Below, in pieces: positions 39,846 through 60,456 of a DNA stretch of 64,000 bases. The DNA is taken from positions 1 to 64,000 of IMG/VR virus record IMGVR_UViG_3300020156_000004. The stretch is one strand, 5' to 3'. The first letter of the stretch is position 1. Each line of letters opens with the position of its first letter. The position numbers and the translations under genes were made by a program. This DNA comes from a virus. The notes beneath the pieces were generated by a model. The model searched no databases, had not been told where the DNA came from, and worked only from the letters and a program-made list of their open reading frames with translations.

Positions 39846-41286
39846 CAACAAGAGCCGAATATTGGGTGATCGTATTCTGGTAGAGGAACTGGCAGATAGA
39901 ACCAAGGTCCGGGTAAAGAATGCATGGTTCGCAATGAGAAATGGTTGGGATGGATTCGTAAGATATGTGAGTACCGAAACCGGAAGTTTCTCTACCGGAT
40001 TATTACCCATGATATTAGACATTCTTAAAAAGGAAAAAATATCCTATGAGCTTGAGGATAAGAGGGCACCCTTTAAGGACATGCACGAGGTAACTAAGGT
40101 AGGAGATCTTACCCTGAGAGATTATCAACAGGCAGCTCTCCATGCGGTATTGAATAACAAGGTAAAGGGGTTTAGATTCCAGAGAGGAATCCTACATGAG
40201 GCCACCAATGCAGGGAAGAACCTGATTGCTGCTGCGATATTCCAGAGCTTCTCAAAGAAACGAAAGGGCCTCTTCCTAATAGATGAAAAGGAAATATTCG
40301 ATCAGGCTGTGGAAGAATTAACAGAGCTTATGGGAGACGAGGTCGGGTATATATCCTCAAAGAAAACCATGATAAGGAGAATCAATGTCTGCATGATTCC
40401 TACTCTGAACTCCCGAATATCCAGAGACCCCAAATTAAAGGCCCTATTAGCCCAACAGGATATAGTTATATATGATGAGGTAGATAAATCTGCAAACGGT
40501 AGGGGTAAAAGAATATTGGGCTTCTGTTATAATGCAACCGTTAGAATAGGATTATCTGGAACCCCATTCATGAGTAAGGATAAGGTAGCAAATCAAAACC
40601 TCCTTGCCTACTTCGGTCCGGTCCTTCATAAGATGAGCAATAGGGAAATGGTCGCTGAAGATCATTCCACTGAACCGGATATAAGATTCTATATGGGTAA
40701 CAAACTTAGGATTGATGACTACCAAGAGGAATACCAAAAGGGAATCATTGATAATAAGGCCAGGCATAAGAAGATATGGAAGCTGGTAATGAAATTTAAA
40801 AGGCACATGCCCTGTCTAATAATGTTTAAAAACCATGCTCATGGCAGAAACCTACTCAAAGCTTGCCCTGAACAAATCCGGGAAACTTATAAGGTTGAGA
40901 TGGTACATGGTCAGACCCCTAACCGCAAACAAATTCTGGCAGATTTTAAAGAGGGTAGGATTGATATACTTATTTGTTCAATGATCGTCCGTAGGGGTAA
41001 GAACATAAAGAAAACCCGGATGATGATTAATGCAGCAGGTGGAGATTCAGTTGCCAATGTACTTCAACTCCTAGGCAGGTTATTAAGAAAGGACGATGAT
41101 AAGAAAAAGGTAATGTTCCTAGACTTCTATGATTATGGAGAGTACCTTCAAAGGCATTCAAAACATAGGTTGATTGCCTTGAAGAATGAGAAGTTTGAGG
41201 TTCCAGTTAAGGAATTATATAAGGGTAAATTAAAGACTATAATTAAATATGAAAGAGAAAAGAGAACCCAGAAAAGACCTCGTTAA
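39823..41286 (+). CDS. superfamily 2 DEAD/DEAH-like helicase
   Basis: Motif I ATNAGKN, motif II IYDEVDK, motif III LSGTPF and motif VI-like VRRGKNIKK. Confidence 0.8.
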   Translation: MIRILIDNNKSRILGDRILVEELADRTKVRVKNAWFAMRNGWDGFVRYVSTETGSFSTGLLPMILDILKKEKISYELEDKRAPFKDMHEVTKVGDLTLRDYQQAALHAVLNNKVKGFRFQRGILHEATNAGKNLIAAAIFQSFSKKRKGLFLIDEKEIFDQAVEELTELMGDEVGYISSKKTMIRRINVCMIPTLNSRISRDPKLKALLAQQDIVIYDEVDKSANGRGKRILGFCYNATVRIGLSGTPFMSKDKVANQNLLAYFGPVLHKMSNREMVAEDHSTEPDIRFYMGNKLRIDDYQEEYQKGIIDNKARHKKIWKLVMKFKRHMPCLIMFKNHAHGRNLLKACPEQIRETYKVEMVHGQTPNRKQILADFKEGRIDILICSMIVRRGKNIKKTRMMINAAGGDSVANVLQLLGRLLRKDDDKKKVMFLDFYDYGEYLQRHSKHRLIALKNEKFEVPVKELYKGKLKTIIKYEREKRTQKRPR

Positions 41287-41731
41287 AAAGGTAGATATGT
41301 TTGCACCTCTTAACATTGAGATATTGGGTAGTGCAAATGACCCTTGCTTCGGAAAGTTATTTAACCCGGGGGCAGAGGAATGCCAGAGATGTGGGGATTC
41401 AGAAATCTGCTCAGCGGTAATGGGACAAGCAAGTCATATCCAAAGAGCCCAGATCGAAAGCAAAAGCAATTTCAAAGACCTTGAGGAAGATAAGATACCG
41501 GACCTGGATAAGGCAGAAATGAAGAAGAAGATTAAATCGAGGTTCAGGGAGGTAATCAAATTATCACCCAAAGGAATATCCGAAGAAAGATTAATTGCTG
41601 ATGTGCATGCCACCTTCTCTACCCAAGGATTTTCAAAACCCAAACTAAAAAAGATATTGGATGCTTTAACCTCCAAGACCAATAAATTTACCTTCAACCC
41701 TAAAACCCAAATCTATTCATGGAAAAGATGA
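41249..41731 (+). CDS. hypothetical Cys-cluster protein
   Basis: It contains CFGKLFNPGAEECQRCGDSEIC. A non-overlapping start at 41297 (MFAPLN) is more likely. Confidence 0.45.
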   Translation: MKEKREPRKDLVKKVDMFAPLNIEILGSANDPCFGKLFNPGAEECQRCGDSEICSAVMGQASHIQRAQIESKSNFKDLEEDKIPDLDKAEMKKKIKSRFREVIKLSPKGISEERLIADVHATFSTQGFSKPKLKKILDALTSKTNKFTFNPKTQIYSWKR

Positions 41732-42477
41732 TGCAGCTCCAGAAAGAACTTCTGGAGCATTACATTCGTATAGAGGGTATGCCTATGTACCCTGTAGACC
41801 CCACCTCAAAGGAAGGCAGAGCTCTTTTGAGGGACTTTGCTTATAGGATAACCGATGAATTGGTAGAGGCATCAAATCACATTGCTGCCATCTACGAAAG
41901 CCTTGCATCCAACCAACAGATGCAAGCCCGTCAGGAACTCAGACATTTTAATGAAGAGCTCGGAGATTGGTGGCACTTCCTTTTGGAGTTCATTGTATTT
42001 GCGGATATAAATGAAAGCCAACTAGAGGGCCTAGTATACCAAGCTGCCCAGGAAGAAATCGGAGGCTTTGAGTATGAGGAATCAGAATGCCACCTGGATA
42101 ATATGTTTGCGATTGCCGATCTAGTATGCCTTAGAGCCGGTCTAAGAGAGGATAGGAGAAACAAATTTAATATAGGTAAGGCAAACCTAGAGGATTGGGG
42201 AGCTGCAACATTAGGACCCCGAACCATTGAGTTATTCTATATGGGTTCATGGAATGCCACAGAAAATCTATTCAAGGCTATTCATGATCTTAAACATAAG
42301 CCCTGGGCTCAGACAGATACCAAGGCAAACCTCGCCGGATTCCTTTCACATACCGGAAGATTCTTTCTTTCGGTAATGCAACTCATGGTAATAATAGGAA
42401 AGACCCCTATGAGTATTAAGGAATCCTATTTCCTAACAAACAAGAAGAACCAAAACCGTATAAAATCAGGCTATTAA
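41719..42477 (+). CDS. all-alpha NTP pyrophosphohydrolase (dimeric dUTPase/dCTPase family)
   Basis: Acidic helix motifs ITDELVEAS and FNEELGDWWHFLLEF, a KHKPW motif, and a C-terminal NKKNQNRIKSGY resembling the N..R...GY end of dimeric dUTPases. Confidence 0.6.
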   Translation: MEKMMQLQKELLEHYIRIEGMPMYPVDPTSKEGRALLRDFAYRITDELVEASNHIAAIYESLASNQQMQARQELRHFNEELGDWWHFLLEFIVFADINESQLEGLVYQAAQEEIGGFEYEESECHLDNMFAIADLVCLRAGLREDRRNKFNIGKANLEDWGAATLGPRTIELFYMGSWNATENLFKAIHDLKHKPWAQTDTKANLAGFLSHTGRFFLSVMQLMVIIGKTPMSIKESYFLTNKKNQNRIKSGY

Positions 42478-42478
42478 T

Positions 42479-43576
42479 ATGAAACATCCTACACCAAGTG
42501 TTTTCCATTTCAAAGACATGACCGATGCATGGCACGGTATGCATGATTATATGTTTAACAACGAAAAGACCATAAGGGAGCGGGGTGGAAACATCTATGG
42601 GTCTGAGTTGGTTACATTGGATAATGTAATATACATAGACAAGGCAACCATCGACCCGGAATTTAACTTCGGAAAGATTCTGGGTTACAAGATGAAGAAA
42701 TGGAGTAAGCTAATTAACAACTACCTAAACTTCAATTACCTTGACCCCATCAAGCATGAGGTAATAGAAAGGGAAATCAAAAGGGGTAACAGTTACAATT
42801 TCGTTTACCGATTCGATAACTCCCATGGCTCAGGCAAAGACTGCCTTATATCCCTTACATTCTCTAAAAGGAAAGGAGATAGAGAACCCACTCTGATCTT
42901 CACATCAAGAGCCTCGGAATGGACCAAGAGGGTAGCCTTTGATTTCCTATTGATTCAAAGGATTGCTGAGTATGTATATGGGGACCGTGATGTTAAACTG
43001 ATATGTTGGTTACCCTTCATCTTCATGAACCTCGAATGTTCACTAATGTATGTAGCAGAATATGGCAAAAAGGTTATCAAAAAAGACAGCGAGGGTAACT
43101 ATAGCCCTTTCCAAGCAAGGCTCGTCAAGAAATTCAAACTCTACCAGGAGATTGATACCGAAACAATCAAGTACAAGGTTCATCAGCGAGCCGCTATGCA
43201 GGTTCAAAGAGACAAGAAAACCGGAAGACCTATCGCTAATTGCCCAGATCTCTTTGCAAAAGAAATGGACCTCTACTCCTCAAACAAATACTCCCGCACC
43301 GACCTTCCGGGAGCTGTGTCGGATGGTAGTCGAGCTGGAAGACCGCCAAAGGATGATTCAGTTACAGGCCTCCAGGTATACAAGGAGATTAAGAAAACTA
43401 TTATCAAGGCCAAGGATGATAAGAAAAAATTACAAAACGCTATGGTGGCTCTGGGAGCCAAGAACGATTACTTCTGGCCGAAGGAATGGGACACTATTGC
43501 CTTCAAAAGAATTTGCAGAGCAGGAAATGAAAGATGGCATAAGAAAGCCTTAAAACTTATAACCAAGTATATCTAA
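42479..43576 (+). CDS. divergent thymidylate-synthase-fold-like protein with a roughly 150 aa C-terminal extension
   Basis: Counting from Cys in GKDCLISLTF, Arg is at +22, Glu at +25, Phe at +32 and Asp at +33. This mirrors the canonical TS spacing (R+20, D+23, F+30, N+31) if a 2-aa insertion is allowed. The similarity is remote and was judged by eye. Confidence 0.35.
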   Translation: MKHPTPSVFHFKDMTDAWHGMHDYMFNNEKTIRERGGNIYGSELVTLDNVIYIDKATIDPEFNFGKILGYKMKKWSKLINNYLNFNYLDPIKHEVIEREIKRGNSYNFVYRFDNSHGSGKDCLISLTFSKRKGDREPTLIFTSRASEWTKRVAFDFLLIQRIAEYVYGDRDVKLICWLPFIFMNLECSLMYVAEYGKKVIKKDSEGNYSPFQARLVKKFKLYQEIDTETIKYKVHQRAAMQVQRDKKTGRPIANCPDLFAKEMDLYSSNKYSRTDLPGAVSDGSRAGRPPKDDSVTGLQVYKEIKKTIIKAKDDKKKLQNAMVALGAKNDYFWPKEWDTIAFKRICRAGNERWHKKALKLITKYI

Positions 43577-43588
43577 TAATAAAACACC

Positions 43589-44386
43589 ATGATATTCAGA
43601 AGTTTCAGAGGGGCTATTGAATGGGCCTTTCAAGATTTAAAGGTGCAGGGTCAACCGATCAGGATTACGAATTGGCAGGGTATGTCTATCAATGAGGAAA
43701 TGATAGAAACCTATAATCTTAACCTCGAAGTTATGCACATACCCACCAATTTGATTGACCTTCAAAACCAAATCCAACCCGACCTTCCCTGGGCAGATAA
43801 CCATTTTGAGGAAAGGGTATCAAGGAAACCCCTTAACCCGGGTAATGAATACCGTAATTGGAAATTCTTTAGGAACAATGCCGAAGATGAAAAATTCCGT
43901 AAAGAGGGTGGGAAATTCTCACATACCTATATGGAAAGATACTGGCCTAAGAGGGCTGGGCATAGGGAGTTAGTTACCTCAGGAGGAACTTTTTTCGGTA
44001 TAAGATATGATTATGGAGACCTTGATGATGTGATTAACCTATTACTCGATGAACCCTATACAAGGCAAGCATATCTCCCGGTATGGTTCCCCGAAGATAC
44101 GGGGGCCGTATCAAAACAAAGAGTACCCTGCACCTTAGGTTATCTACTCTATTACAGGCAAGAGAAGCTACACATAACCTATTATATTAGAGCCTGTGAT
44201 GCCTTTAAACATTTCAGGAATGATATATACCTGACGGTAAGATTGCTTCAATGGGTTCTTAATGAACTCTGTATGAGGCAAAGTCATGAATCGAAAATAG
44301 ATTGGCATAATGTAAAGTTAGGTACCTTCAACATGGTCATTGCTAATTTCCATGTATTCAAAAAAGAAATAAACCTTTTAAAATGA
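43589..44386 (+). CDS. thymidylate synthase family enzyme, dCMP hydroxymethylase-like (Asp at the specificity position)
   Basis: DEPYTRQAYLPVWFP aligns with NDPDSRRIIVSAWN. There is a catalytic-Cys strand RVPCTLGYLLYY and a gapless alignment from Cys (R+20, C+22, D+23). Position +31 is Asp (FRND), as in T4 gp42 (FRNDY as I recall it), not the Asn of ThyA. Confidence 0.7.
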   Translation: MIFRSFRGAIEWAFQDLKVQGQPIRITNWQGMSINEEMIETYNLNLEVMHIPTNLIDLQNQIQPDLPWADNHFEERVSRKPLNPGNEYRNWKFFRNNAEDEKFRKEGGKFSHTYMERYWPKRAGHRELVTSGGTFFGIRYDYGDLDDVINLLLDEPYTRQAYLPVWFPEDTGAVSKQRVPCTLGYLLYYRQEKLHITYYIRACDAFKHFRNDIYLTVRLLQWVLNELCMRQSHESKIDWHNVKLGTFNMVIANFHVFKKEINLLK

Positions 44387-44811
44387 GGCCCTCAAGAGAC
44401 TCTATAAACCTAGAGATATGCCGGACGATTGCCAAACGATCTGATTGTAGGCGAGGTAAAGTTGGATGCGTTATAACCAAGTCAGGGAGGATTGTGAGCA
44501 CTGGGTATAATGGAACCATCGGAGAAATCAAATGCGAGGCGGTATGTAATGTACTTAGTGCTTGCCAACATGCTGCTCATGCCGAAGCAAATGCTATATG
44601 GTCGGCGGCAAAAGAGGGTATATCTATATTCGGGGCCACCCTGTATTGCACTACATGCCCCTGCTATGAATGTGCAAAAGCTATTGTGCAAGTGGGTATA
44701 TTAAAGGTAATATATATTGAAGAATATAGAGATACTCGGGGCAAACTATTCCTTATAGATAATGGGATAATCGTTAAAAAATACCTAAGTGATGAGCAAG
44801 AGCAGGCTTAA
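44383..44811 (+). CDS. dCMP deaminase
   Basis: Zinc motifs HAEANAI and CTTCPCYEC (HAE ... PCxxC). Confidence 0.9.
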   Translation: MRPSRDSINLEICRTIAKRSDCRRGKVGCVITKSGRIVSTGYNGTIGEIKCEAVCNVLSACQHAAHAEANAIWSAAKEGISIFGATLYCTTCPCYECAKAIVQVGILKVIYIEEYRDTRGKLFLIDNGIIVKKYLSDEQEQA

Positions 44812-46975
44812 GATTGTCAAGAATAAAAAGATACTTCGGGACCTAATAGCTTATTGTAAACAAACTAAATATTGTTCCTTTGACTTTGAAACCTCAGATA
44901 CCGAATACATCAACCCGGATAGTTACCCTCTCTGCCTCGGAGTTTCATTTCAACCGGGAATCAGCTATGTTATACCCCTCGCACACAAAGATTCCCCGAT
45001 TAAGAAGAAAAACCGCTGGTTATACTATCTACGAAAATTTGGAAGAGAGGTACTCGCTGATGCTTCGATTGTTAAAGTCGCTTGGAACCTCAAATTTGAA
45101 TACAACTGGTGCCTCCGATACAACATTCGACTTAGAGGAAGATTATTTGATGGTATGCTTGCAAAGTATTGCCTTGATGAGGAAAGGCCCCATGATCTTA
45201 AATCTCAGGTGGATAGGTTCTTTCCCGAATTTTCGGGTTATGAAGGGTGGAGCGAAGGAATCAAATGGGTAGATAAACCTCTGGATGGTTTGATGAAATA
45301 TTGCGGTATAGATTCTGATTTAACATTAAGGTTAATGCTTTACTTTGAACCCAAGCTAATCAAGCTGGGGTTCTATCCTTTATTTAGAAACCTACTCATG
45401 ACCTCTCTGCGGGTATTAGCGGAGTCAGAATACCGGGGAGCCTTGATAGATGAGAATTACCTAAGAGACCTTGTTGAAACCTATAGGAAGAAGATAGAGG
45501 AATCGGATAGAAAACTAAGGAGCATACCTGAGGTCGTCAAGTTTGAATCAAGGAAAGTAATTGCACTCAGGAAGCAGATGATAGAGGATGTGAGACTAGA
45601 GATTGCCGCTATCGAACGGGAGGATGCCTCCAATGATAGGGAGGAACGATCAAAACTAACTCGAATAAAAAACCGGGAAAAGAAGATCACCAATATAATG
45701 GCAGGGGTTTACAACAAAAAGGAATCTGAGAAATTAGGCCCCATCAATTTCGGTTCACCTACCCAATTAATAGACTTCCTATTCAAAAAGAAATATGGGT
45801 TAAGATTACCCGTATCAAAATATACCCAGGATAAAAAGACGAAACAAGAAACAGACACCCCCTCCACGGCTGAAGATGTATTGGAAGAACTCAAGAAAAA
45901 GGATAAGACCGGATTCATGGAACAACTCCTGGCTCATAGAGGATTAACCAAATTAAACTCAACGTATGTCGAAGGAATGCTCAAGAACCTCGATAGATAT
46001 GGCCGAGTACACACTTCTTTCTTTCTACATGGGACTGTTACTGGCCGATTATCTTCAAGAGAACCAAACTTACAAAACATACCAAGGGACACAACAGCCT
46101 CCGATATTAAACGGATGTTCATACCTCCGCCAGGTTACCTTCTTCTTGAGGTCGATTACTCCCAGGCAGAATTGCGAGTAGTGGCAGAGATGGCAGAGGA
46201 TGAGGTAATGATAGACATTTTCAAGAAGAACTTTAATATACACGTTGCCACTGCATGCCTTGTTAACTTTGGAAACCTAAAGAAATATGACAAGATTAAA
46301 GAGATCATCAAAGACGTTACCCATCCGAAAAATATACACTGGGAGAAAGAAAAGAAAAAGGGTAAGACAGTTAATTTTGGAATCCTCTACGGACAAGGGG
46401 CTCCAGCATTGGCAGAAGGTCTCGGTATACCCGTTGAAGAAGCGGAAGAATTTATCAAGGGATGGTTGGATAACTACCCTGGAGTTAAAAAATGGATGCG
46501 AAACCAAATTAGGTTCTGTGAGGAGCACGAGTATGTCAAAAATATGTTTGGTAGGAAAAGAAGGCTCCCTGATATTAATTCGGAATACAAGGGATTCAAA
46601 AAGAAGGCTGAAAGGGATTGTATCAATGCCCCAATCCAGGGAACCGCTTCAGATTTTGCCCTGCTCTCCCAAGTTATTATTCGGCATGAGATTATGAAAG
46701 GTAACCTACCAGTAGATATGCAGCAGGTCTATACGGTACATGATTCAATAGGATATTACATCAGAGCCTCCGATATTCATTGGGTAATTCCTAAGATTAT
46801 TAAGATATGTGCTAACCCAGACACCAAGAAGTATTTTGGATTCGAGTTAAAGCATGTATGGATGAAGGTATCTCCCGAAGTGGGTAAACATTGGGGTGAA
46901 CTCAGAGAATACGATGAAAAAGTAAATTACAAAATATGGCAGAAAGAATTGAACAAATCAATGTTAGCAGCCTAA
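44789..46975 (+). CDS. family A DNA polymerase with 3'-5' exonuclease domain
   Basis: Exo I motif DFETS, then RLSSREPNLQNIP, motif A DYSQAELRV, motif B KTVNFGILYG and motif C VHDS. Confidence 0.95.
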   Translation: MMSKSRLKIVKNKKILRDLIAYCKQTKYCSFDFETSDTEYINPDSYPLCLGVSFQPGISYVIPLAHKDSPIKKKNRWLYYLRKFGREVLADASIVKVAWNLKFEYNWCLRYNIRLRGRLFDGMLAKYCLDEERPHDLKSQVDRFFPEFSGYEGWSEGIKWVDKPLDGLMKYCGIDSDLTLRLMLYFEPKLIKLGFYPLFRNLLMTSLRVLAESEYRGALIDENYLRDLVETYRKKIEESDRKLRSIPEVVKFESRKVIALRKQMIEDVRLEIAAIEREDASNDREERSKLTRIKNREKKITNIMAGVYNKKESEKLGPINFGSPTQLIDFLFKKKYGLRLPVSKYTQDKKTKQETDTPSTAEDVLEELKKKDKTGFMEQLLAHRGLTKLNSTYVEGMLKNLDRYGRVHTSFFLHGTVTGRLSSREPNLQNIPRDTTASDIKRMFIPPPGYLLLEVDYSQAELRVVAEMAEDEVMIDIFKKNFNIHVATACLVNFGNLKKYDKIKEIIKDVTHPKNIHWEKEKKKGKTVNFGILYGQGAPALAEGLGIPVEEAEEFIKGWLDNYPGVKKWMRNQIRFCEEHEYVKNMFGRKRRLPDINSEYKGFKKKAERDCINAPIQGTASDFALLSQVIIRHEIMKGNLPVDMQQVYTVHDSIGYYIRASDIHWVIPKIIKICANPDTKKYFGFELKHVWMKVSPEVGKHWGELREYDEKVNYKIWQKELNKSMLAA

Positions 46976-47004
46976 AATTTATTAATAACCTAAAATAAAC
47001 CGTT

Positions 47005-47688
47005 ATGAAAATTGTACTTGCCGGTTCATCGGGTGCAGGTAAATCAACTCTGGCCAGATGGATTTCTGAAAATTACGATCTACCCTATAAGGAGAACTCC
47101 GCTGGGATGATTATGCTACCTTCCGATAAGGAGAACTTAAGGATAAGATATGGGTACAATGGGGATTTAGGACAAGAAGGAGTCCTGAAACTTTGTCAAA
47201 AAGACCCCGGCTTTGGATTAGCATTTCAATTAGCCGTATTGAAAGCCCGAGAAGCCCTGGCGGAAAGGGAAAAATTTATATACGACAGATCAGCCTTAGA
47301 CCCAGCCGTATTCTTCCTTCATCAGGTAGGTGAGAATTGGAATGAAGAAACCAATGTTCAGGTACTCCATGAATGTGCAAAGGTATTATCGAGGTATGAT
47401 TTGATAATCTACCTACCCTTAATATCCATTGACCGGGAGTTCCATAACATACAAATTGAAAGGGAAGCTAATGGAGGGAGATTTGCCCATAAGTTTTTCC
47501 AATGGAAAATAGATCAATTATTCCTGAGTACATATAAATTATTAGTACACATGAATATAATGTATGGTTGGCATCTTCCAATGCCCCCACTATCTGAAAT
47601 AAGATTTTGGAATTGGCATATAAGAACCAGTCAAGCCGCGGGTCTTATCGAGCGGTTAAAAAATAAAATACCTCAAGGGACTATCTAA
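47005..47688 (+). CDS. P-loop deoxynucleoside/deoxynucleotide kinase-like protein
   Basis: P-loop GSSGAGKST. YDRSALDPAVFF resembles the ERS...D..F motif of the dNK/dNMP kinase fold. Confidence 0.55.
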   Translation: MKIVLAGSSGAGKSTLARWISENYDLPYKENSAGMIMLPSDKENLRIRYGYNGDLGQEGVLKLCQKDPGFGLAFQLAVLKAREALAEREKFIYDRSALDPAVFFLHQVGENWNEETNVQVLHECAKVLSRYDLIIYLPLISIDREFHNIQIEREANGGRFAHKFFQWKIDQLFLSTYKLLVHMNIMYGWHLPMPPLSEIRFWNWHIRTSQAAGLIERLKNKIPQGTI

Positions 47689-47694
47689 TAAAGG

Positions 47695-48144
47695 ATGAAA
47701 AAATTATTTAAATATAAGGATAGTGCGGTAAATAATATTTCCATTTACTACCAGGGTGAGAAGATTACCTTCTCTCTTTGGGATGAGGTAAAGATCAGTG
47801 AGGAAGCAATGGACAAGGAAATAAAAACCCAACCATCCCATTACGGTTTTCTACTCCTACTCCAGAAGAAACTCAATACCCGATTTGAGGATTTGAAACG
47901 TAGAAGAAAGAAAGTATATGGCCAACTCCTTGTGAAAGCCAAGGAAATGAAGGTGGGGCCAAGGTTGATGAATGATGATACTGCACGGGCATGGGTGGAA
48001 TCACATCCGAAATTCAATAAGATCACTAAGCTGTGTATTAAGGCAAAAGACGATGCTGATACCATCTATGCCGCAGTTCAGGCATTCCAACAAAGGAAAG
48101 ACCTTCTCCAAACCCTAAGTTCTAACCGAAGAAAAGAAGTCTAA
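47695..48144 (+). CDS. hypothetical protein (UvsY-like recombination mediator is only a positional guess)
   Basis: 149 aa helical, basic ORF upstream of the SSB-like and RecA-like genes. Confidence 0.4.
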   Translation: MKKLFKYKDSAVNNISIYYQGEKITFSLWDEVKISEEAMDKEIKTQPSHYGFLLLLQKKLNTRFEDLKRRRKKVYGQLLVKAKEMKVGPRLMNDDTARAWVESHPKFNKITKLCIKAKDDADTIYAAVQAFQQRKDLLQTLSSNRRKEV

Positions 48145-48467
48145 TGATACAACTCGAAAAAATAGTAGAGGTAGTAGTGCACCCTCACCAAAAAAGGAAA
48201 GAGGATGTCCCCGAAATGGTAGGTTCAATGGGAATACATTATCTGGTATTCAGAAGTTCACTCCATGACCTAAAGGAATGGTTTAAGACTGAGGCCGGGA
48301 GATTGATTGAGAAACACATGGTCTCTGGGGTAAGCGAGGTAATATATGAATCATCTACTGGGGGTAGAGTAGTAAGAACCTATGCGAAGGGAAGCACTAT
48401 ACTAAGGAAGGAATCAACCCGAGGGGGAGTGGCTCCATCAAAGAATCAAAAATCATCATTCATTTAA
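48144..48467 (+). CDS. hypothetical protein
   Basis: 107 aa ORF whose start overlaps the stop of the upstream gene. Confidence 0.45.
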   Translation: MIQLEKIVEVVVHPHQKRKEDVPEMVGSMGIHYLVFRSSLHDLKEWFKTEAGRLIEKHMVSGVSEVIYESSTGGRVVRTYAKGSTILRKESTRGGVAPSKNQKSSFI

Positions 48468-48477
48468 ACCAAATAAC

Positions 48478-49200
48478 ATGGCTAAATTAAGCATGAAAGA
48501 AAGGTTGCTAGAGAAGCAACGTAAGTTAAGAGAAAAACGAGGCGGGCTATGGAGAACCATTAAAGAGGGAACTCTAAGAGCAAGGCCCCTTCCGATCAAA
48601 GAAGGCCAAGAATTTTCATTCGAGGTATTCATTATCTGGGCCAACAAGGATATAATGTTTATCTCACCCTCATCCATTGGTGAGAAATGCGCTTGGAAAG
48701 AAAAGTATGATGAGTTGATGGCCTCATCTGATGAGGCTGAGAGGAAGTTTGCCAAGAGCAAAATGTATATGCGGAAGAAATCATTGATGCCACACCTATT
48801 CTATTCTGACCCTAAAGGAAAGATCGAAGATGGTACCGGATTACTACTGCTCTCACCCAATCAAACCGCAGAACTTATTGATCTATGGATGGATGATGAG
48901 GCTGGAGATTTCACTGACCCGATTCACGGTTATGATATTAAGTATAAGAGGGTAGGCTCAGGCAAGATGGACACCGAATATACCCAGAGTCGATGCAATC
49001 CAACCAAATTACCAAAGGAACACAGGGAACCCATAGACCTTGAAAAAATGATTCGGGATATGATACCTTCCTATAAACAAACCAAGAAATATGTAGAACA
49101 ATTCTTGGCTCTGGGTATGGAGACCGATGAGGATGAGGATGAAACAAGAAGCTCAAAGAAAAAGGACAAGAAGAAGAAAAAGAAATCCAGAGACCTCTAA
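48478..49200 (+). CDS. putative single-stranded DNA-binding protein
   Basis: 240 aa ORF with an acidic C-terminal tract METDEDEDE followed by a K-run. It lies directly upstream of the RecA-like gene. The call rests on position and composition only. Confidence 0.35.
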   Translation: MAKLSMKERLLEKQRKLREKRGGLWRTIKEGTLRARPLPIKEGQEFSFEVFIIWANKDIMFISPSSIGEKCAWKEKYDELMASSDEAERKFAKSKMYMRKKSLMPHLFYSDPKGKIEDGTGLLLLSPNQTAELIDLWMDDEAGDFTDPIHGYDIKYKRVGSGKMDTEYTQSRCNPTKLPKEHREPIDLEKMIRDMIPSYKQTKKYVEQFLALGMETDEDEDETRSSKKKDKKKKKKSRDL

Positions 49201-49227
49201 TTTACTCACCCCTAATCATAAATAATC

Positions 49228-50355
49228 ATGGCAAAAAAATCAGGCGATAAGATTCTAAGCCCAGCGGAAATGAAAAGGAAATTCCCTTCTTCCGGCAAGG
49301 CTTCTGAAATCTACCTCGATGCTGATTCTTCTCTATGGTTGCCCTCAAGAATACTAGCCTTCAATCACATGATTGGAGGCGGTATTCCGTATGGGAAAAT
49401 CATGGACCTGCACGGTGAGGAATCGGCAGGTAAGAGTTTATTATCTACGGACTTTGCATACACTACTCAGGCTTTGGGGGGTAAGGTATTATGGATAGAT
49501 GCCGAGGCAGCATTTGATCCGGCCTGGGTTTCTAATCAGGGAGTTGACCCAGATAAGATAGAGATACTGAAGGATGAGAACATGCTCGAGGTAATATCCG
49601 ATTGGATTAAGTATCAGGTTCTTTATTGGAGGTCTAAGTTAGTTAACAATGAGCCCATCCTCATCATTCTTGATTCGATTGCTAATACTGATACCCGTGA
49701 TAACCTAGAAACAGATTCACAGGATAAGAAAGCCGAGATGGGTAAGAGAGCCTCCAAGGTATATGAATTACTCCGGGCAAGGAGTACATACATATCCAAA
49801 TACGGGGCCATCATGATTGGTATTAATCAATTAAGACAGAAGGTCGGAGCAGGAATGTTTGAGGACCCAGATACGGTACCAGGTGGACAGGCAATGAAAT
49901 TCTATGCTTCCCAAAGAATAGGGCTTTATAGGGGTAAGATGGTTAAGGATAAGGATAAGAACCCCGTGGGAAATGTAACTTATATGAGGACCAAGAAGAA
50001 CAAGGTAGCACCACCCAAAAAGAATATCAAGGGTGAGTTCTATTATGAGACTTACAATGGTATGTTAGGTTATAATAAATACCTGGGTTTCTTACCCATC
50101 CTATTGGAAAAGGGAATCGTTGAGAGAAAGGCTGGAAAGATATACTATAAGGGTGAGTTACTTTGCTCCTACAAAGAGGAAGATGAAATGCCCTTCATTA
50201 GGATGATCTTGAAGAAGGAAAAACTCCGAGCTAACCTGATTAGAAAGTCAGGTATTAATTCGGTATCAAAAATGAAGGAAAAATTAGGCTCTATAAAAAA
50301 GAACCTATATCCAGTAAAAGTTAAATCTAAAGACGATGGCCAGGACGACGAATAA
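49228..50355 (+). CDS. RecA/UvsX-family recombinase
   Basis: Walker A HGEESAGKS, Walker B ILIILDSIAN, and GINQLRQKVG in the L1/L2 region. Confidence 0.85.
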   Translation: MAKKSGDKILSPAEMKRKFPSSGKASEIYLDADSSLWLPSRILAFNHMIGGGIPYGKIMDLHGEESAGKSLLSTDFAYTTQALGGKVLWIDAEAAFDPAWVSNQGVDPDKIEILKDENMLEVISDWIKYQVLYWRSKLVNNEPILIILDSIANTDTRDNLETDSQDKKAEMGKRASKVYELLRARSTYISKYGAIMIGINQLRQKVGAGMFEDPDTVPGGQAMKFYASQRIGLYRGKMVKDKDKNPVGNVTYMRTKKNKVAPPKKNIKGEFYYETYNGMLGYNKYLGFLPILLEKGIVERKAGKIYYKGELLCSYKEEDEMPFIRMILKKEKLRANLIRKSGINSVSKMKEKLGSIKKNLYPVKVKSKDDGQDDE

Positions 50356-54960: not shown

Positions 54961-55660
54961 GTACTTCTGCTGGCTCATTGCCTACATCGACTCCGACACA
55001 GTACACCTTGTTAAGAGAGAATTAAAAAGATACCTTGAATATAAGGAAGTAGAGGTATTCATTCCTACGGTAAAGGTACTCACCAAGACTTTCAAAGGTG
55101 AAGATAAATTTGATGAGGTACCCCTACTATTTCAATATGGCTTCTTTAAGGTGCCCAGGAAATTTGCAGTATCAGAAATTTACCTGGAGAACATGAAGAA
55201 TAATATTACTTGCATCTTCGGCTGGCTTAAAGACCCGCATAAGGTAATTGATGGGGAGCAAAACACCCGAAAGAAAAACATCCCTGACTCCGCTATACCC
55301 ATTGCCACAGCTACTTCAAGAGAGGTGGCCCAGCTGGTTAAAAAGGCTTTTGATTATTCTATTCATTCTTCGGAAGATATAGGGAGTATTAAACCCGGAG
55401 ACTACATAACACTCCGAGGGTACCCCTTTGACAACATGCAGGCTGAGATCATGGAGATTGATGCTGTGAAGAAGAAGGCTAAGGTAAAGATACACATACT
55501 GCATGGAGATAGGCCGGTAGATGTATCTTTCGATAATATCTTCTTTACCGTATACCAATCATACGACGACTCCCTGAGCAATGTTGATTCGCTCGACGAA
55601 TTGATGGCTAATAGAAAATCAAAACTCTTTAAAAAATTACCCGATGCGGGCACTGAATAA
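54941..55660 (+). CDS. NusG-like transcription elongation/antitermination factor (NGN plus KOW)
   Basis: NGN-like WLIAYIDSDTVHLVKRELKR...EVFIPTVKV...VPLLFQYGFFKVP and KOW-like IKPGDYITLRGYPFDNMQAEIMEID. Confidence 0.6.
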   Translation: MPKKGDRYFCWLIAYIDSDTVHLVKRELKRYLEYKEVEVFIPTVKVLTKTFKGEDKFDEVPLLFQYGFFKVPRKFAVSEIYLENMKNNITCIFGWLKDPHKVIDGEQNTRKKNIPDSAIPIATATSREVAQLVKKAFDYSIHSSEDIGSIKPGDYITLRGYPFDNMQAEIMEIDAVKKKAKVKIHILHGDRPVDVSFDNIFFTVYQSYDDSLSNVDSLDELMANRKSKLFKKLPDAGTE

Positions 55661-56558
55661 ACAGGCATGGGATAACCTAGACCCCCACGAACAAACAGCC
55701 CTCTCACTTAACTTTGCCTATGATAAGTCCACTTGGGAAGCTGGTGAGATCATGTCTAGGAGCCACTATAAGTACCTAGAGATCAAATCAAGGGCTGAAC
55801 ACTTCCTAAAGCTTTTTACCGAATATTACAAACTATGGAATAGGCTTATACCGGATGAGGTAACCGGAGATTCCATAGCCATTGAATACTTCAGATTATG
55901 CCTGGAGAAAAGACAGAAACCCAAATTAGCCATATTCAACATATCTGAGAGCCGAGGTAAGACCATAATGAAATCTAACCTGAATGCCAGGATAGAGAAA
56001 CAATTAAATGAGTGGGGTAAATCTGAACTTATTGCTGAGACCCAAGCCTACCACCTGATTAAGGACTTTGATAGATGGAATAACTTTAGGATATTACCCA
56101 AACACCTACAAGAACCTTCTGCCTTTAAAAGAAGGCTCAAGAATGTCTTTAAGAAACAATTAAAAACCCTAAGGGAACTGAATGAATTTAGCCTGGAGCA
56201 TTTAAAGAAATTAGTTAGAGCCACCAGAAAAGCCGATATAGAAAACTGTTTATATTTACCCATAATCGAAAAAGATGGAAAACCCAAAATTTACCGAATT
56301 AAAAACAAACCTAGCTACCTTGGGATTCTTGATGATCTTTCTCTGTATTATTTTCGAACTCCGGAACAAGCCGATGCCTACATTCGATTGTGTTGTTCTT
56401 ATCTGTTTAACCCTGAACGTTCATGCCAAGATGGCCTCAATTTTTGGCCAAAATTCCGAGAAGAAATAAAGAACGCAGCTAATTATGACTCCATTTGCAA
56501 TAAAGCTCCTCACCGGAAACACCTCGAAATAGCCTTCAGCAAGATAGAATATATTTGA
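55644..56558 (+). CDS. hypothetical protein with N-terminal sigma region-4-like HTH
   Basis: LDPHEQTALSLNFAYDKSTWEAGEIMSRSHYKYLEIKSRAEHFL resembles a region 4.2 / LuxR-type HTH. Confidence 0.35.
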   Translation: MRALNKQAWDNLDPHEQTALSLNFAYDKSTWEAGEIMSRSHYKYLEIKSRAEHFLKLFTEYYKLWNRLIPDEVTGDSIAIEYFRLCLEKRQKPKLAIFNISESRGKTIMKSNLNARIEKQLNEWGKSELIAETQAYHLIKDFDRWNNFRILPKHLQEPSAFKRRLKNVFKKQLKTLRELNEFSLEHLKKLVRATRKADIENCLYLPIIEKDGKPKIYRIKNKPSYLGILDDLSLYYFRTPEQADAYIRLCCSYLFNPERSCQDGLNFWPKFREEIKNAANYDSICNKAPHRKHLEIAFSKIEYI

Positions 56559-56589
56559 GGTGGATAAGATTATACCACCGGGTGGATAA
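56559..56589 (+). promoter_or_regulatory. two copies of a GGTGGATAA motif (first copy in the 15-mer GGTGGATAAGATTAT)
   Basis: The 15-mer at 56559-56573 is identical to 59538-59552. The second 9-mer lies at 56581-56589. CCACC at 56575-56579 forms an inverted repeat with both copies. Confidence 0.5.
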
Positions 56590-56627
56590 TAATTTAAATT
56601 GAGGTTTTTTCCTGGTTTATTTATCCT

Positions 56628-56635
56628 TATTTTTG
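56628..56635 (+). promoter_or_regulatory. TAnnTTTG box (Bacteroidota -7 element candidate)
   Basis: TATTTTTG lies 26 nt upstream of the ATG at 56661. Confidence 0.35.
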
Positions 56636-56660
56636 ATCTTCCATATTTATATATCACATT

Positions 56661-57290
56661 ATGAAAAAGACTAAAAAGAAGAAAAAGAAGGTACCCAAGG
56701 ACCTCCGACCCAAGACTCCTGGACTCCCTGAAAAGAAGGAGGAAGTATCTTACCGCAACGAAATGGGAGCGGATAGGATTCTTCCCCGGCTCAAATATAG
56801 GGAACTAAAGGAGGCTTGCATATTAAGGGGTATGAGTCCTAAAGATGTAGTAGAGGCAGATCATCACCGACTTGCCTCTTTCTTTGTCGAAAATTATGAT
56901 AAGGGAGAAGACCCAAGTCTACTGATTGCCTTTGACCAATTCGTGGAGGCAGATTTGGAAAGTAGGGGTCATAAGAAAGGGGACATGATGTTGTCCCCTT
57001 CCCTTCGCTTAAGCTACGTTGGCAAGATAGAGGATGCTAAAGAGATCAAGGTCATTAACAAACCCAAACCGGAGACTCCGAAGAAACCTCAGGAACCCCC
57101 TAAACCTAAGAGGGAAAAGGATGAAACCACCGGAATAATGAAGGGAACCAAGAAAGCCCTTCTCTTTGAGTTGGTTAAAAAGAAGTGGAAATTGGAAAAG
57201 ATCATGGCTGAGGTATTGAAGCAATTTCCCACTGCCAATGAAAAGTCTATGAAAATCTGGTACAAACAGGCAAAAGAAAAACTCAGATAA
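56661..57290 (+). CDS. basic protein with SAP/HeH-like DNA-binding motif
   Basis: N-terminal K-run MKKTKKKKKK. LPRLKYRELKEACILRGMSPKD resembles a SAP/HeH helix-extension-helix motif. There is also a PKPETPKKPQEPPKPKREK tract. Confidence 0.5.
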   Translation: MKKTKKKKKKVPKDLRPKTPGLPEKKEEVSYRNEMGADRILPRLKYRELKEACILRGMSPKDVVEADHHRLASFFVENYDKGEDPSLLIAFDQFVEADLESRGHKKGDMMLSPSLRLSYVGKIEDAKEIKVINKPKPETPKKPQEPPKPKREKDETTGIMKGTKKALLFELVKKKWKLEKIMAEVLKQFPTANEKSMKIWYKQAKEKLR

Positions 57291-57291
57291 T

Positions 57292-57558
57292 ATGGCAAAA
57301 AAGAAAACAGAATACCTGATCACGGACTTTACAATACCCTCTGGTGATACGGTTATAGTTCCCCCTAGACAAGAATTCAAAACCATAACATTTGGGTTTG
57401 ATGCTATGGATGTTGAGGGTAAATTAAATGAATTAAGAGAAGAATTTTATAGAAAGGGTATGTTTATAAAAAGCTTCAAGGTAATTCAAAGAACCACTGG
57501 ATTTAGTGCAGTAGCCGGGGGAAAGGTAGTAATCCTATTTGAAGAATTTAAACCATAA
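57292..57558 (+). CDS. hypothetical protein
   Basis: 88 aa ORF starting 2 nt after the upstream stop. Confidence 0.45.
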   Translation: MAKKKTEYLITDFTIPSGDTVIVPPRQEFKTITFGFDAMDVEGKLNELREEFYRKGMFIKSFKVIQRTTGFSAVAGGKVVILFEEFKP

Positions 57559-57714
57559 TTAAAAAATGGAAACCTTTTATATACCTAAAGACGATAGCCC
57601 AGCTGAAATGCAAAGATGGTTGAAAGCCGAAGGAATAGATTAGAAAAGATGAAACTATTAAAAGCCCCTATGGTTTTAATTAAAGACTGTTCATAACTAA
57701 TAAAAAAAAACTTT

Positions 57715-57975
57715 ATGGAATTACAGAAATTCGGCGGAAAATTTTGGTTCGGAACCCGGAAAGAAAAAATACCCTCGGGAGAAACTAAAGAGGTAACGGT
57801 TTTGGCATCATGGACTGTTACCTGGAAACATTACCTTGAATTTGGTTGGAGTAAACCAAAGTTCAAGGCATTTGTTATTTTTGAGGAAGCACAGGCATTT
57901 AAGGCAGCCTTGGAAGAAGCTTATAATATGATACAAATGGATAAAGATTATAGAGTGGAGATAACCCAAAATTAA
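57715..57975 (+). CDS. hypothetical protein
   Basis: 86 aa ORF. Confidence 0.45.
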   Translation: MELQKFGGKFWFGTRKEKIPSGETKEVTVLASWTVTWKHYLEFGWSKPKFKAFVIFEEAQAFKAALEEAYNMIQMDKDYRVEITQN

Positions 57976-57977
57976 AG

Positions 57978-58694
57978 ATGAAAAAAACCACAGACCTTAA
58001 AATTTATAAATCCTATTGGTATGTATTGGACTTCACTAACTTCCAAAAACCAACCGTATTACCGATATATTTCCTATCGAAAAAGCTTGCAAAGGAGGGC
58101 ATACGAAGAGGAGTTAAAAAGAACCTTCGGCGTTACTATAGACCCATTCAAGGTAAAGTTATCATCAAGCATGAGTTTCCAGTCGTATTTAAGAAGGGAA
58201 CGTGGAAAAAGGTTACAAAATATGATTACCCGACTGATAGGCTTACTGCGCAGCAAAAGAAAACATTTCGTACTGTTATGCGGAGAAGATTACGACGGAT
58301 GGGTATATTATCCATCGTTCGTCCAAAGCTCAAGATTACCGAAAAACCAAAGATCATCAAAGAAGTGGTTAATAGGCAAAAGGTAGCCAAGAACAAGAAC
58401 AGTGAGGCAAAAATCTTTCAACTCCAAAGGAAGCCCCGGCATATCTTCTATTTTCTAGTGAGAAAAAGACTTTCTGCGGCTTCCGGCAAACTTTTCTTAT
58501 TAAATGTGATTCGCATAAACTTAAAGGATGGGAGCCTCATGGAGATCGAGTTGGAAACTAAAAGGCATGATTTAATCCGGCCCATCCTTCTTTCAGAATT
58601 TAAAAAGATCATATATGAAAAAGGGCTTAAAACCCAAGAGACTCCCGAAAACTTCATTGCCAGACTTAAGGAAAAAGGCATTGAAATTCTATAA
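57978..58694 (+). CDS. hypothetical basic (K/R-rich) protein
   Basis: 238 aa ORF containing KKTFRTVMRRRLRRMG. Confidence 0.45.
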   Translation: MKKTTDLKIYKSYWYVLDFTNFQKPTVLPIYFLSKKLAKEGIRRGVKKNLRRYYRPIQGKVIIKHEFPVVFKKGTWKKVTKYDYPTDRLTAQQKKTFRTVMRRRLRRMGILSIVRPKLKITEKPKIIKEVVNRQKVAKNKNSEAKIFQLQRKPRHIFYFLVRKRLSAASGKLFLLNVIRINLKDGSLMEIELETKRHDLIRPILLSEFKKIIYEKGLKTQETPENFIARLKEKGIEIL

Positions 58695-59265
58695 GGATAA
58701 TAATGCTGCGATCAAAAGAGATATATTCAGGAATAGGCACGGGGTACTACTCGCAACCGAAGATTCGGTGGATTCCCTTCAACTTAATCAAAGTTACCTA
58801 AAAATCACGAACCAAGACTGGACTCGTGCGGCAGAGTTCAAGATGATCGAAGGGGCTTTTATTCGGGCAGGCTGGGATGGATATAGGGTACCCCTGCTTT
58901 TCCTTTTAGATGATCTACATAAACATATCTGGCCTCGGTATCTTAAATACCATAAGAAAAAGAAGGCCTCAGATTATAGGCTGATTAAAGAAACCGATGC
59001 CATGAGAGAGCTCCTTTTTAGGGGCTTTATCCATATTAATCAGGCCCGATGGAAACCTGAAAGACCCTATACAATCCAAGCCGATATAGGTGATCTAGTC
59101 TGGCCCGAATCATATAAGCACCATCAGGATGCTATTCAAAAGAGAGATCAGATCACATTTGGGGGCTATGGAAGATGCGATGTACCCAAAGATTATGATT
59201 ATGCCAAAAAAACATTCACAACCCGAGGACTCCATACCCGGGGCTTTAAATTTGATAATCAATGA
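58615..59265 (+). CDS. hypothetical protein
   Basis: 216 aa ORF that overlaps the upstream gene by 80 nt. The next in-frame ATG is MIEGAF at 58846, 232 nt downstream, so the start is uncertain. Confidence 0.4.
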   Translation: MKKGLKPKRLPKTSLPDLRKKALKFYKDNNAAIKRDIFRNRHGVLLATEDSVDSLQLNQSYLKITNQDWTRAAEFKMIEGAFIRAGWDGYRVPLLFLLDDLHKHIWPRYLKYHKKKKASDYRLIKETDAMRELLFRGFIHINQARWKPERPYTIQADIGDLVWPESYKHHQDAIQKRDQITFGGYGRCDVPKDYDYAKKTFTTRGLHTRGFKFDNQ

Positions 59266-59528
59266 ACATTTTAACCAAGAAACACACCGCTATCCTGGTA
59301 TATGAAGGAGGCCAGAAGGTGGTAAAGATTCAAGATCAAGGTATTGACTTTCACTCCCAACCGGTAGAGAGGGATGCCGAGGATGAGGATGATGATACCG
59401 GAGATAACCATGTGATTATGGCCCTTGCGAGAGAAGTAGCCGCAGACAATGATGCCTTGAAAAGGCTTGCAGTGGCCAACTACGATGTAGGGGTAGAGTT
59501 CACAATCTTTCAAAAGTACCTCCAGTAG
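59262..59528 (+). CDS. hypothetical protein
   Basis: 88 aa ORF with an ATGA start/stop overlap. Confidence 0.45.
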   Translation: MNILTKKHTAILVYEGGQKVVKIQDQGIDFHSQPVERDAEDEDDDTGDNHVIMALAREVAADNDALKRLAVANYDVGVEFTIFQKYLQ

Positions 59529-59537
59529 TGGAAATCG

Positions 59538-59552
59538 GGTGGATAAGATTAT
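59538..59552 (+). promoter_or_regulatory. GGTGGATAAGATTAT motif copy with downstream TTATCC inverted half-site
   Basis: The 15-mer is identical to 56559-56573. GGATAA ... TTATCC (59555-59560) forms an inverted repeat. Confidence 0.5.
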
Positions 59553-59574
59553 TTTTATCCTATCTTATTATATA

Positions 59575-59582
59575 TATCTTTG
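59575..59582 (+). promoter_or_regulatory. TAnnTTTG box (Bacteroidota -7 element candidate)
   Basis: TATCTTTG lies 76 nt upstream of the ATG at 59658. Confidence 0.4.
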
Positions 59583-59657
59583 AATATGTGAATCTATCAC
59601 AGGTTCTTTGACATACCGAGTTTTTTTCATTTATTAATCATAAAAACCCATTCAAAA

Positions 59658-60068
59658 ATGGCAAAAAAAGACAAGGCAAAAGATGCCAAGAAAGAAGAAA
59701 AGAAGGTTGAACTCGTTGGGCTTTCATTACATTACTCTAATGGAGTTTCCAAAAAACTCAAGGTAGTGGCAGATGATGCCGATGATGATGAAGATGAGGA
59801 CGAAGATGAAGATGATGAAGATACCAAAACCACGAAAAAAGGTAAAGGTGGTAAAGGTAAATCCAAAGATGATGATGAGGACGATGAGGACGACGATGAT
59901 GAAGATGAAGATGATGAAGACGACGATGAGGCTGAAGACGATGATGATGAAGATGATGATGAGGCCGAAGATGAAGATGATGAAGATGATGAAGATGAGG
60001 ACGACGAAGAAGAAGAAAAGCCCAAGAAGGGTTCAAAGGCGAAGGCTGGTAAGGGCAAGAAGAAATAA
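59658..60068 (+). CDS. extremely acidic poly-D/E protein with K-rich termini
   Basis: 136 aa ORF. Two D/E runs flank a KKGKGGKGKSK linker. The N- and C-termini are lysine-rich. A strong terminator follows. Confidence 0.6.
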   Translation: MAKKDKAKDAKKEEKKVELVGLSLHYSNGVSKKLKVVADDADDDEDEDEDEDDEDTKTTKKGKGGKGKSKDDDEDDEDDDDEDEDDEDDDEAEDDDDEDDDEAEDEDDEDDEDEDDEEEEKPKKGSKAKAGKGKKK

Positions 60069-60093
60069 CCCGCTTTTCTTTCTTTTAGTCGGA

Positions 60094-60124
60094 GGGGGTC
60101 GGAATATCCCGGCTCCCTTTTTTA
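60094..60124 (+). terminator. rho-independent terminator
   Basis: gggggtcgg / ccggctccc form a 9-bp stem with two G-U pairs and a short loop, followed by ttttttatt. Confidence 0.7.
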
Positions 60125-60147
60125 TTCACTTAACAAACTTAAAACCC

Positions 60148-60456
60148 ATGGATATTGCAATCTATAGCCTAATTAAGCAAATACTCCAATCCAAACATGA
60201 TGAAGCTCTAGGTATGGCCCTTCATCTTCAACATCAACTCCAATTACCCGAAGAGCATCGAGTAATTGATGTAGATACCGTTGAAATCCGAAATAACCTC
60301 TTAATCGCTAACTCTAATGCAACCCAATACCAAGAAGCCCTCACCCAATTCACCTACCTCTTCGCTGAATCAAGGAAACATAACGAATCTACATCAATTC
60401 CGGCGGGATATGGGAGTGAGGCTCGCGAAGAGGACGGAAGAGTACGGGGATATTAA
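60148..60456 (+). CDS. hypothetical protein (MDIAIYSLIKQ...)
   Basis: This is the in-frame ATG within track ORF 59773-60456. The upstream part of that ORF is an alternative-frame reading of the D/E repeat and of the terminator. Confidence 0.4.
   Translation: MDIAIYSLIKQILQSKHDEALGMALHLQHQLQLPEEHRVIDVDTVEIRNNLLIANSNATQYQEALTQFTYLFAESRKHNESTSIPAGYGSEAREEDGRVRGY

Follow-up and report, generated by a model that had tools for sequence, protein, structure and literature searches.

Which nucleotide does an enzyme of the thymidylate synthase (TS) superfamily act upon, and what does it make, when the asparagine that sets its base specificity has become an aspartate? The question is raised by a gene in the first 64,000 nucleotides (nt) of the IMG/VR virus record IMGVR_UViG_3300020156_000004, the stretch of DNA analysed here and referred to throughout as the window, which comprises most of an 84.6-kb myovirus genome recovered from a metagenome (ENA ERZ27257314, contig k141_200166). 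An earlier note on the same DNA had placed a TS-family gene on the plus strand at 43589 to 44386 and had taken its Asp as the mark of an enzyme for deoxycytidine monophosphate (dCMP) in place of deoxyuridine monophosphate (dUMP). The open reading frame (ORF) is exactly as described there, with a product of 265 amino acids (aa). Our analysis suggests that this product, hereafter the TS-like protein, very probably acts on dCMP, and assigns a probability of about 45% to the complete scheme in which a dCMP-specific enzyme of the TS superfamily produces 5-methyl-dCMP (5mdCMP), part of which is deaminated to thymidine monophosphate (dTMP). Two features distinguish the locus: an active-site signature that escapes the published residue rules and a conserved, cryptic partner for which a TS fold is predicted.

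The assignment depends on the register of the active site. Within the translation of 44120-44227, RVPCTLGYLLYYRQEKLHITYYIRACDAFKHFRNDI, and counting from Cys181, Arg201 stands at +20, Cys203 at +22, Asp204 at +23 and Asp212 at +31. Alignments made with MAFFT against Escherichia coli ThyA and with HMMER against the TS of L. casei and the hydroxymethylase MilA pair these five residues, without a gap, with ThyA C146, R166, C168, D169 and N177; Pro180-Cys181, Arg201 and Asp204 keep the spacing that the catalytic Pro-Cys, Arg166 and Asp169 have in canonical TS enzymes. Both the gapless alignment and the Asp at the equivalent of Asn177, which the earlier note had read from the letters, are thereby borne out. 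The reference sequences used are identical to PDB 1aob (ThyA) and PDB 1b49 (gp42, the dCMP hydroxymethylase of phage T4). The latter reads MRSNDVVFGFRNDYAW, with the context GFRNDYAW and again 31 residues from C148 to D179, so the Asp179 at equal spacing within an FRND motif, to which the earlier note had pointed, is confirmed. The top single PDB sequence match of the TS-like protein is 1njc, an engineered N229D mutant of the L. casei enzyme, which ranks first because the Asp of the query matches the Asp of the mutant. From the alignment and the fold, rather than from distances between model coordinates, we infer that Asp212 lies in the specificity pocket.

Conservation supports this register. 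The family comprises 4057 clusters at 90% identity (E<=1e-5, in a set of 5.8 billion proteins), and residues were counted in 205 members aligned to the family profile, namely 120 database proteins together with the homologues from the fetched loci. Asp212 is present in every one of them, as are C181, R201, R159 (=R126), E75, W91, Y114, H255 (=H207), R178 and H112, while the position of Asp204 is occupied by D in 198, by E in seven and by N in none. The competing register, in which the Asn preceding the Asp would be the pocket residue, was rejected; it fails at the family level because that preceding residue varies (D in 149, N in 56) whereas Asp212 is invariant.

The TS fold itself, also claimed at the outset, is predicted by several tools. 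In sequence, solved structures are only remotely similar, with MilA giving the best profile match (E 7.5e-6), and the match to Pfam family PF00303 is marginal, its 25.1 bits barely exceeding the threshold of 24.3 (E 1.1e-5), and covers residues 140-262 only; phrog_160 matches with E 1.3e-27. An AlphaFold model built from a 65-sequence alignment has a predicted local distance difference test (pLDDT) score of 90 and a predicted template modelling score (pTM) of 0.90. Compared with the PDB by Foldseek, it yields 396 matches at E<=0.001, of which the best 50 are all TS, MilA or AfhB; AfhB, MilA and ThyA head the list with E between 1e-13 and 1e-11. Model and alignments together assign ORF 43589-44386 to the TS fold.

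That the residue at position 177 switches an enzyme between dUMP and dCMP is in agreement with the literature. The substitutions N177D in the E. coli enzyme and N229D in that of L. casei produce dCMP methylases, and D179N shifts T4 dCMP hydroxymethylase towards dUMP (cited in PMC8670742, PMC13326640 and PMC6400193). In the MetaGPA study, positions 177 and 147 were those most associated with contigs carrying modified cytosine (PMC8670742). A later survey found dCMP-type residues in 85% of deaminase-linked TS homologues, and five of the seven deaminase-linked N177D homologues that were tested made 5mdCMP in vivo (bioRxiv 10.1101/2024.12.05.627091). It is on the strength of the Asp rule and of these assays on other N177D homologues that we take the TS-like enzyme to act on dCMP and not on dUMP. 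The solved enzymes that it matches best, MilA, AfhB and the L. casei N229D dCMP-methylase mutant, all handle cytosine nucleotides.

The remaining active-site residues match no signature of the four characterised classes, and the product is not readable from sequence. The T4-type hydroxymethylase signature consists of Asp or Glu three residues before the catalytic Cys and Ser or Thr two residues before the catalytic-base Tyr (Ser94-x-Tyr96); in T4, Asp145 and Ser94 are proposed to activate the hydroxylating water, and D145N abolishes activity (PMC6400193). Our reading of the -3 position follows that work and PMC13326640. The TS-like protein shares with T4 gp42 (PDB 1b49/1b5e/6a9a) the distance from Cys to Asp, the identical FRND motif and a short C-terminus, and T4 likewise encodes a deaminase, a nucleoside triphosphate (NTP) pyrophosphohydrolase and a deoxynucleoside monophosphate (dNMP) kinase. 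However, identity is only about 19%, no glucosyltransferases of the T4 kind were found in the window phage, and Asp145 and Ser94 are replaced by Arg178 and His112. The latter belongs to a His112-Thr113-Tyr114 segment at the Ser94-x-Tyr96 position, in a loop that aligns with less certainty than the core. Orthology to gp42 was rejected on these two substitutions, both invariant in the family; beyond the Asp the resemblance is limited, and it would be a mistake to label the protein an orthologue of gp42.

MilA, the CMP 5-hydroxymethylase (PDB 5b6d/5jnh), shares a gapless CTL...R..D...D core, including the Thr that follows the Cys, and its fold matches with TMq up to 0.69; it differs in having Asp at -3, in being 60 residues longer and in belonging to a bacterial antibiotic pathway. 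The 5-hydroxy-dCMP synthases (RB69 gp48, DLP3 gp80 and AfhB of phage HY126; PDB 9iqu/9iqc) resemble the TS-like protein in their small size and in Asp177, and the dCMP hydroxylase AfhB (9iqu) is its top Foldseek match (E 2.3e-13, TMt 0.72). These flavin-dependent TS homologues are diagnosed by D169N (PMC13326640). The TS-like protein has neither D169N nor L143E and keeps the folate-handling residues, and membership of this class was rejected on the family-wide absence of Asn at the Asp204 position. From ThyA it departs at Asn177 (Asp212), Leu143 (Arg178), His147 (Thr182) and Arg127 (an invariant Gln); in addition, only ten residues follow the equivalent of His207, against a family median of 14 and 57 in E. 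coli ThyA, where methyl transfer depends on the hydrophobic Leu143 and on a C-terminal tail that closes off the folate site. The phages Xp12 and PaMx74, reported to carry 5-methylcytosine (5mC) in place of cytosine, provide the comparison for a dCMP methylase: N177D is shared, as is the gene order of hydrolase, TS homologue and dCMP deaminase, but the PaMx74 protein has a long, ThyA-like C-terminal region, Asn at -3 and a DHFR gene next to it, none of which is seen here.

Closest in context are the N177D homologues of MetaGPA, which likewise combine Asp177 and a residue other than His at 147 with an adjoining PF00383 deaminase, an NTP pyrophosphohydrolase and a family A polymerase; their published description mentions neither an Arg at -3 nor a His in place of Ser94 nor a second TS-fold gene. 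TS homologues co-occur with pyrophosphohydrolase and dCMP deaminase (PMC8670742). On modified contigs, 70% of deaminases have a TS homologue no more than 3 kb away, PRA-PH and DNA_pol_A with its exonuclease are the other leading domains in the neighbourhood, and the linked deaminases prefer 5mC, suggesting synthesis of dTMP from 5mdCMP (bioRxiv 10.1101/2024.12.05.627091). In the window, the deaminase lies within 3 kb and the NTP pyrophosphohydrolase and DNA_pol_A are nearby (genes starting at 41719, 43589, 44383 and 44789). The idea of an Asp for Asn exchange is thus right but not new, as the published neighbourhood of phage N177D homologues is matched gene for gene.

Table 1. Genes and codons of the locus, in window coordinates
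Feature	Position	Strand	Basis
DnaB helicase	36633		
Primase	38042		
Helicase	39823		
All-alpha NTP pyrophosphohydrolase (dimeric dUTPase/MazG-like)	41719..42477	+	phrog_12184, phrog_173; PF08761 dUTPase_2, E 2.4e-4
Cryptic paralogue with predicted TS fold, 365 aa	42479..43576	+	No Pfam family; AlphaFold and Foldseek
TS-fold enzyme with Asp at the Asn177 position	43589..44386	+	ATG start, 265 aa; PF00303, phrog_160, AlphaFold, Foldseek, alignments
Arg178 codon, -3 from Cys (ThyA Leu143, T4 dCMP hydroxymethylase Asp145)	44120..44122	+	Arg in 205/205
Cys181 codon, catalytic nucleophile (E. coli C146)	44129..44131	+	Alignments; 205/205 family members
Asp212 codon, base-specificity position (ThyA N177, T4 gp42 D179)	44222..44224	+	Asp in 205/205
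dCMP/cytidine-family zinc deaminase, 142 aa	44383..44811	+	PF00383, E 6e-22; phrog_174
Family A DNA polymerase with 3'-5' exonuclease	44789..46975	+	PF00476, E 7e-90; PF01612
P-loop nucleotide kinase (thymidylate kinase/dNMP kinase-like)	47005..47688	+	phrog_2107 thymidylate kinase, E 3e-8; PF13521; weak PF01712

The TS-like gene sits within the replication module (Table 1) of a genome that also encodes terminase, portal, capsid, tail sheath, tape measure and baseplate. Because a megablast search of positions 40000-50000 against 50,697 phage records gave no match, we regard the phage as known solely from the metagenome. The NTP pyrophosphohydrolase is a candidate dCTPase or dUTPase that would supply the monophosphate. 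The start of the deaminase gene overlaps the stop of the TS-like gene by 4 nt, and the PDB sequence matches of its product are the dCMP deaminases 2hvv, 1vq2 (from T4) and 4p9c. Any modified deoxynucleoside triphosphate would need to be accepted by the family A polymerase. No second ThyA, ThyX or DHFR is detectable in the window or in the approximately 20 kb outside it, which together make up almost the whole genome, and a search of the genome for glycosyltransferases and carbamoyltransferases found none.

In cultured phages, including Mycobacterium phage Muddy, Serratia phage Serbin, Pseudomonas phage PMBT14 and Brevundimonas phage Polewnik, the module reads kinase, pyrophosphohydrolase, hypothetical protein, 'thymidylate synthase', deaminase and DNA polymerase I. 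We classified 85 loci, fetched from IMG/VR with the addition of a few cultured phages: 45 contain the module and the remaining 40 the TS-like gene alone, mostly on jumbo-phage contigs of 150-430 kb. In several of these jumbo-phage loci (L020, L026-L028, L031, L050 and others) the gene stands beside a metallophosphoesterase gene, without deaminase, PolA or partner within 6 kb. Two relatives are informative. In the 409-aa database protein P0068, a TS-like domain at the N-terminus is naturally fused to a dCMP deaminase domain at the C-terminus, in the same order as the genes of the window. In MW202777.1 (locus L005), a gene for a flavin-dependent ThyX at 8570-9202 lies between the deaminase gene and the TS-like gene, which is named 'pyrimidine hmase' in that record; because a separate ThyX is present in the same module, the TS-like protein is not the thymidylate synthase of that phage.

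The gene located 12 nt upstream of the TS-like gene encodes a protein that sequence searches pass over and that is annotated nowhere; its TS fold emerged only from structure prediction combined with Foldseek. It belongs to no Pfam family and has a single weak PHROG match, to a family of unknown function; Pfam searches with 53 of its relatives and a profile search of the PDB gave no match either. Its AlphaFold model has an overall pLDDT of 83 and is confident over residues 1-265, with low confidence in the C-terminal 100 or so residues. The top Foldseek matches of this model in the PDB all belong to the TS superfamily (MilA, 1.7e-5; AfhB, 3.8e-5; T4 dCMP hydroxymethylase, 9e-5), and in the viral structure library BFVD they are uncharacterised phage proteins, among them the upstream gene of PMBT14, followed by viral entries for TS and dCMP hydroxymethylase. 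Across the family, including the homologues of Muddy (gp47), Serbin and Polewnik, the only invariant residues are Y82, C122, R144 and D155, while E147 is invariant among the closer relatives. Two independent hhalign runs, although weak (E 0.15 and 0.46), agree in equating C122 with C146, R144 with R166, E147 with D169 and D155 with N177, and both the spacing and the predicted secondary structure fit this register.

In 35 of the 38 modules with enough sequence, a homologue of the paralogue precedes the TS-like gene on the same strand, and it is directly adjacent in 20 of them, with many gaps of -3, that is, start and stop codons overlapping by 4 nt. Muddy, Serbin, PMBT14, Polewnik and most of the metagenomic relatives have it beside the TS-like gene. 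The family has 178 representatives at 50% identity. Among 150 representatives, fusions of the two TS-fold proteins were not found, and the long members instead carry low-complexity basic tails. Such a tail, with the GRP motif AGRPPKD, is encoded within 43330-43576 of the window, and the long members P0292, P0276 and P0256 end in tails with KRGPGRPPKD and GKRGRPRK. These GRP motifs resemble AT-hooks, a hint that the proteins may be tethered to DNA. Judged from the model and the alignments, the paralogue is probably a second, catalytic TS-fold protein for cytosine nucleotides that would be co-translated with the TS-like protein. A search of the literature found no description of it, and its predicted TS fold is a new finding of this analysis.

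In the scheme that we favour, Cys181 would add to C6 of the cytosine, Asp212 would read and protonate N3/N4, and Glu75, Trp91, Tyr114 and Asp204, plausibly the counterparts of ThyA E58, W80, Y94 and D169, would handle methylene-tetrahydrofolate; by virtue of these retained residues the one-carbon unit could be placed on C5. One share of the resulting 5mdCMP may be phosphorylated by the phage P-loop kinase and another deaminated to dTMP by the neighbouring deaminase. Thymidylate would then arise by methylation followed by deamination, from monophosphate that the NTP pyrophosphohydrolase delivers, whether or not 5mC also ends up in the phage DNA. What the analysis shows is the fold, the residues and their invariance, and the gene context. 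The preference for 5mdCMP rests on the precedent of deaminase-linked homologues, the fusion of TS-like protein and deaminase, and the lack of any other route to dTMP; 5mdCMP is the most likely product, yet the choice of methyl over hydroxymethyl is a guess, as is any role of the paralogue. The P0068 fusion and the 4-nt gene overlap are the reasons for regarding the TS-like and deaminase steps as consecutive.

Several observations weigh against this scheme. Methyl transfer needs a hydride transfer in a sealed site, so that the loss of the ThyA tail and the polar Arg at the position of Leu143 favour a non-reductive product. The same is favoured by the genome without a detectable DHFR, when PaMx74 has one beside its homologue, and the PaMx74 homologue is itself distant, with 21% identity over 149 aa (pairwise E 2e-10). 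The TS-fold paralogue has no role in the scheme. Further doubts arise from the phage DNA. At L091:8249-9268, on the same contig and approximately 1.8 kb upstream of window position 1, lies the gene of a C5 cytosine DNA methyltransferase (PF00145, E 5e-18), and because this enzyme would have no substrate if cytosine were fully replaced, full replacement looks unlikely. Restriction palindromes, those containing C included, are also strongly avoided in the window. The observed to expected ratios are 0.56 for GATC, 0.52 for CTAG, 0.65 for GTAC and 0.30 for GCGC (seven copies), and about 0.1 for the sites of EcoRI (GAATTC), EcoRV (GATATC), BglII (AGATCT) and BclI (TGATCA); sites for ClaI (ATCGAT) and XbaI (TCTAGA) number zero. 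GGCC and CCGG are not avoided, and the ratio for CpG is 0.61. Methyltransferase and site avoidance fit, indirectly, a module that yields mainly dTMP, or a partial modification. Searches of the literature on Muddy/Mapvirus, Serbin, Tlacuache, PMBT14/Knuthellervirus and Polewnik turned up nothing on DNA modification; the paper on Brevundimonas phages typed its isolates by EcoRI patterns, a weak hint that the DNA can be cut.

If a non-reductive product is preferred, one candidate is 5-hydroxymethyl-dCMP (5hmdCMP), formed when water traps the exocyclic methylene as in T4 gp42 and MilA and destined either for DNA or for deamination to 5-hydroxymethyl-dUMP (5hmdUMP). The TS-like protein has a short C-terminus, as does the T4 enzyme (PMC6400193), the FRND motif is that of gp42, both profile and fold place it nearest, among solved structures, to MilA, a hydroxymethylase, and AfhB, a hydroxylase, the MW202777 relative is annotated as a hydroxymethylase in one database record, and a reaction that releases tetrahydrofolate fits a genome encoding no DHFR. 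We nevertheless consider this outcome unlikely. The invariant residue at -3 is Arg rather than Asp or Glu, at a site where the change of D145 to N already inactivates the T4 enzyme, and the Ser94 position holds an invariant His; no glycosyl- or carbamoyltransferase was found in the genome; and 5hmdUMP, which a fused deaminase would make from 5hmdCMP, has no downstream enzyme in the genome. It is improbable in still greater measure that the enzyme is an ordinary thymidylate synthase, with the deaminase converting dCMP and the pyrophosphohydrolase converting deoxyuridine triphosphate (dUTP) to dUMP, the TS-like protein methylating the dUMP, and the kinase producing thymidine diphosphate. Each gene of the module does have a textbook role in the synthesis of thymidine triphosphate, the genome yielded no further thymidylate synthase and GenBank gives homologues that name. 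Asn is nonetheless absent from position 177 in all 205 sequences, and the exchange of this residue moves N177D and N229D enzymes to dCMP and the D179N enzyme towards dUMP; of His147, Leu143, Arg127 and the C-terminal tail that ThyA has, the protein retains none, and the relative in MW202777 has a separate ThyX in its module.

A different answer would give the paralogue a part: the two proteins, as a heterodimer or as successive enzymes, might carry out a chemistry at C5 or C4 of cytosine nucleotides other than methylation, hydroxymethylation or hydroxylation, with Arg178 and His112 positioning another nucleophile or cofactor. Dimerisation is obligate for TS enzymes, whose active sites are shared, and the second phosphate-binding Arg of ThyA (R127) is an invariant Gln here. 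The signature outside the four characterised classes would be accommodated, as would the paralogue, which has the predicted TS fold, whose C122, R144 and D155, together with Y82, fall on catalytic positions and whose gene lies upstream in most modules, often, where adjacent, at the -3 spacing typical of co-translated partners. Against this stand the 40 loci, most of them on contigs of jumbo phages, in which the TS-like gene has no paralogue within 6 kb, the lack of any fusion of the two proteins, the register of the paralogue at those weak hhalign values, and the size of its family, which is far smaller than the more than 4000 clusters of the TS-like protein. On balance such joint action is doubtful, and equally doubtful is its most specific form, a heterodimer of two TS folds performing an undescribed modification of cytosine nucleotides, in which Arg178 and His112 would replace the Asp/Ser pair and some members would be bound to DNA by the AT-hook-like tail.

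A gene of this kind is labelled "thymidylate synthase" in hundreds of sequenced phages, the therapeutic mycobacteriophage Muddy among them, and these labels are wrong if the enzymes act on dCMP. If so, the DNA or nucleotide pools of such phages may hold 5-substituted cytosine, affecting restriction, CRISPR targeting, sequencing and immune sensing. The TS-like clade escapes every published residue rule for the products of TS homologues; assaying a single member would widen those rules, and a conserved, hidden TS-fold partner would represent a fifth kind beside ThyA, the dCMP/dUMP hydroxymethylases, the dCMP methylase and the 5-hydroxy-dCMP synthase.

Two further observations concern other parts of the genome. 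An ORF of 1652 aa with a TTG start and without a Pfam family lies directly after the major capsid gene (6887-11845, plus strand). Downstream of the replication and recombination genes, 55644-64000 of the window and the adjoining L090 hold a long run, of about 20 kb, of small plus-strand ORFs without an assigned family.

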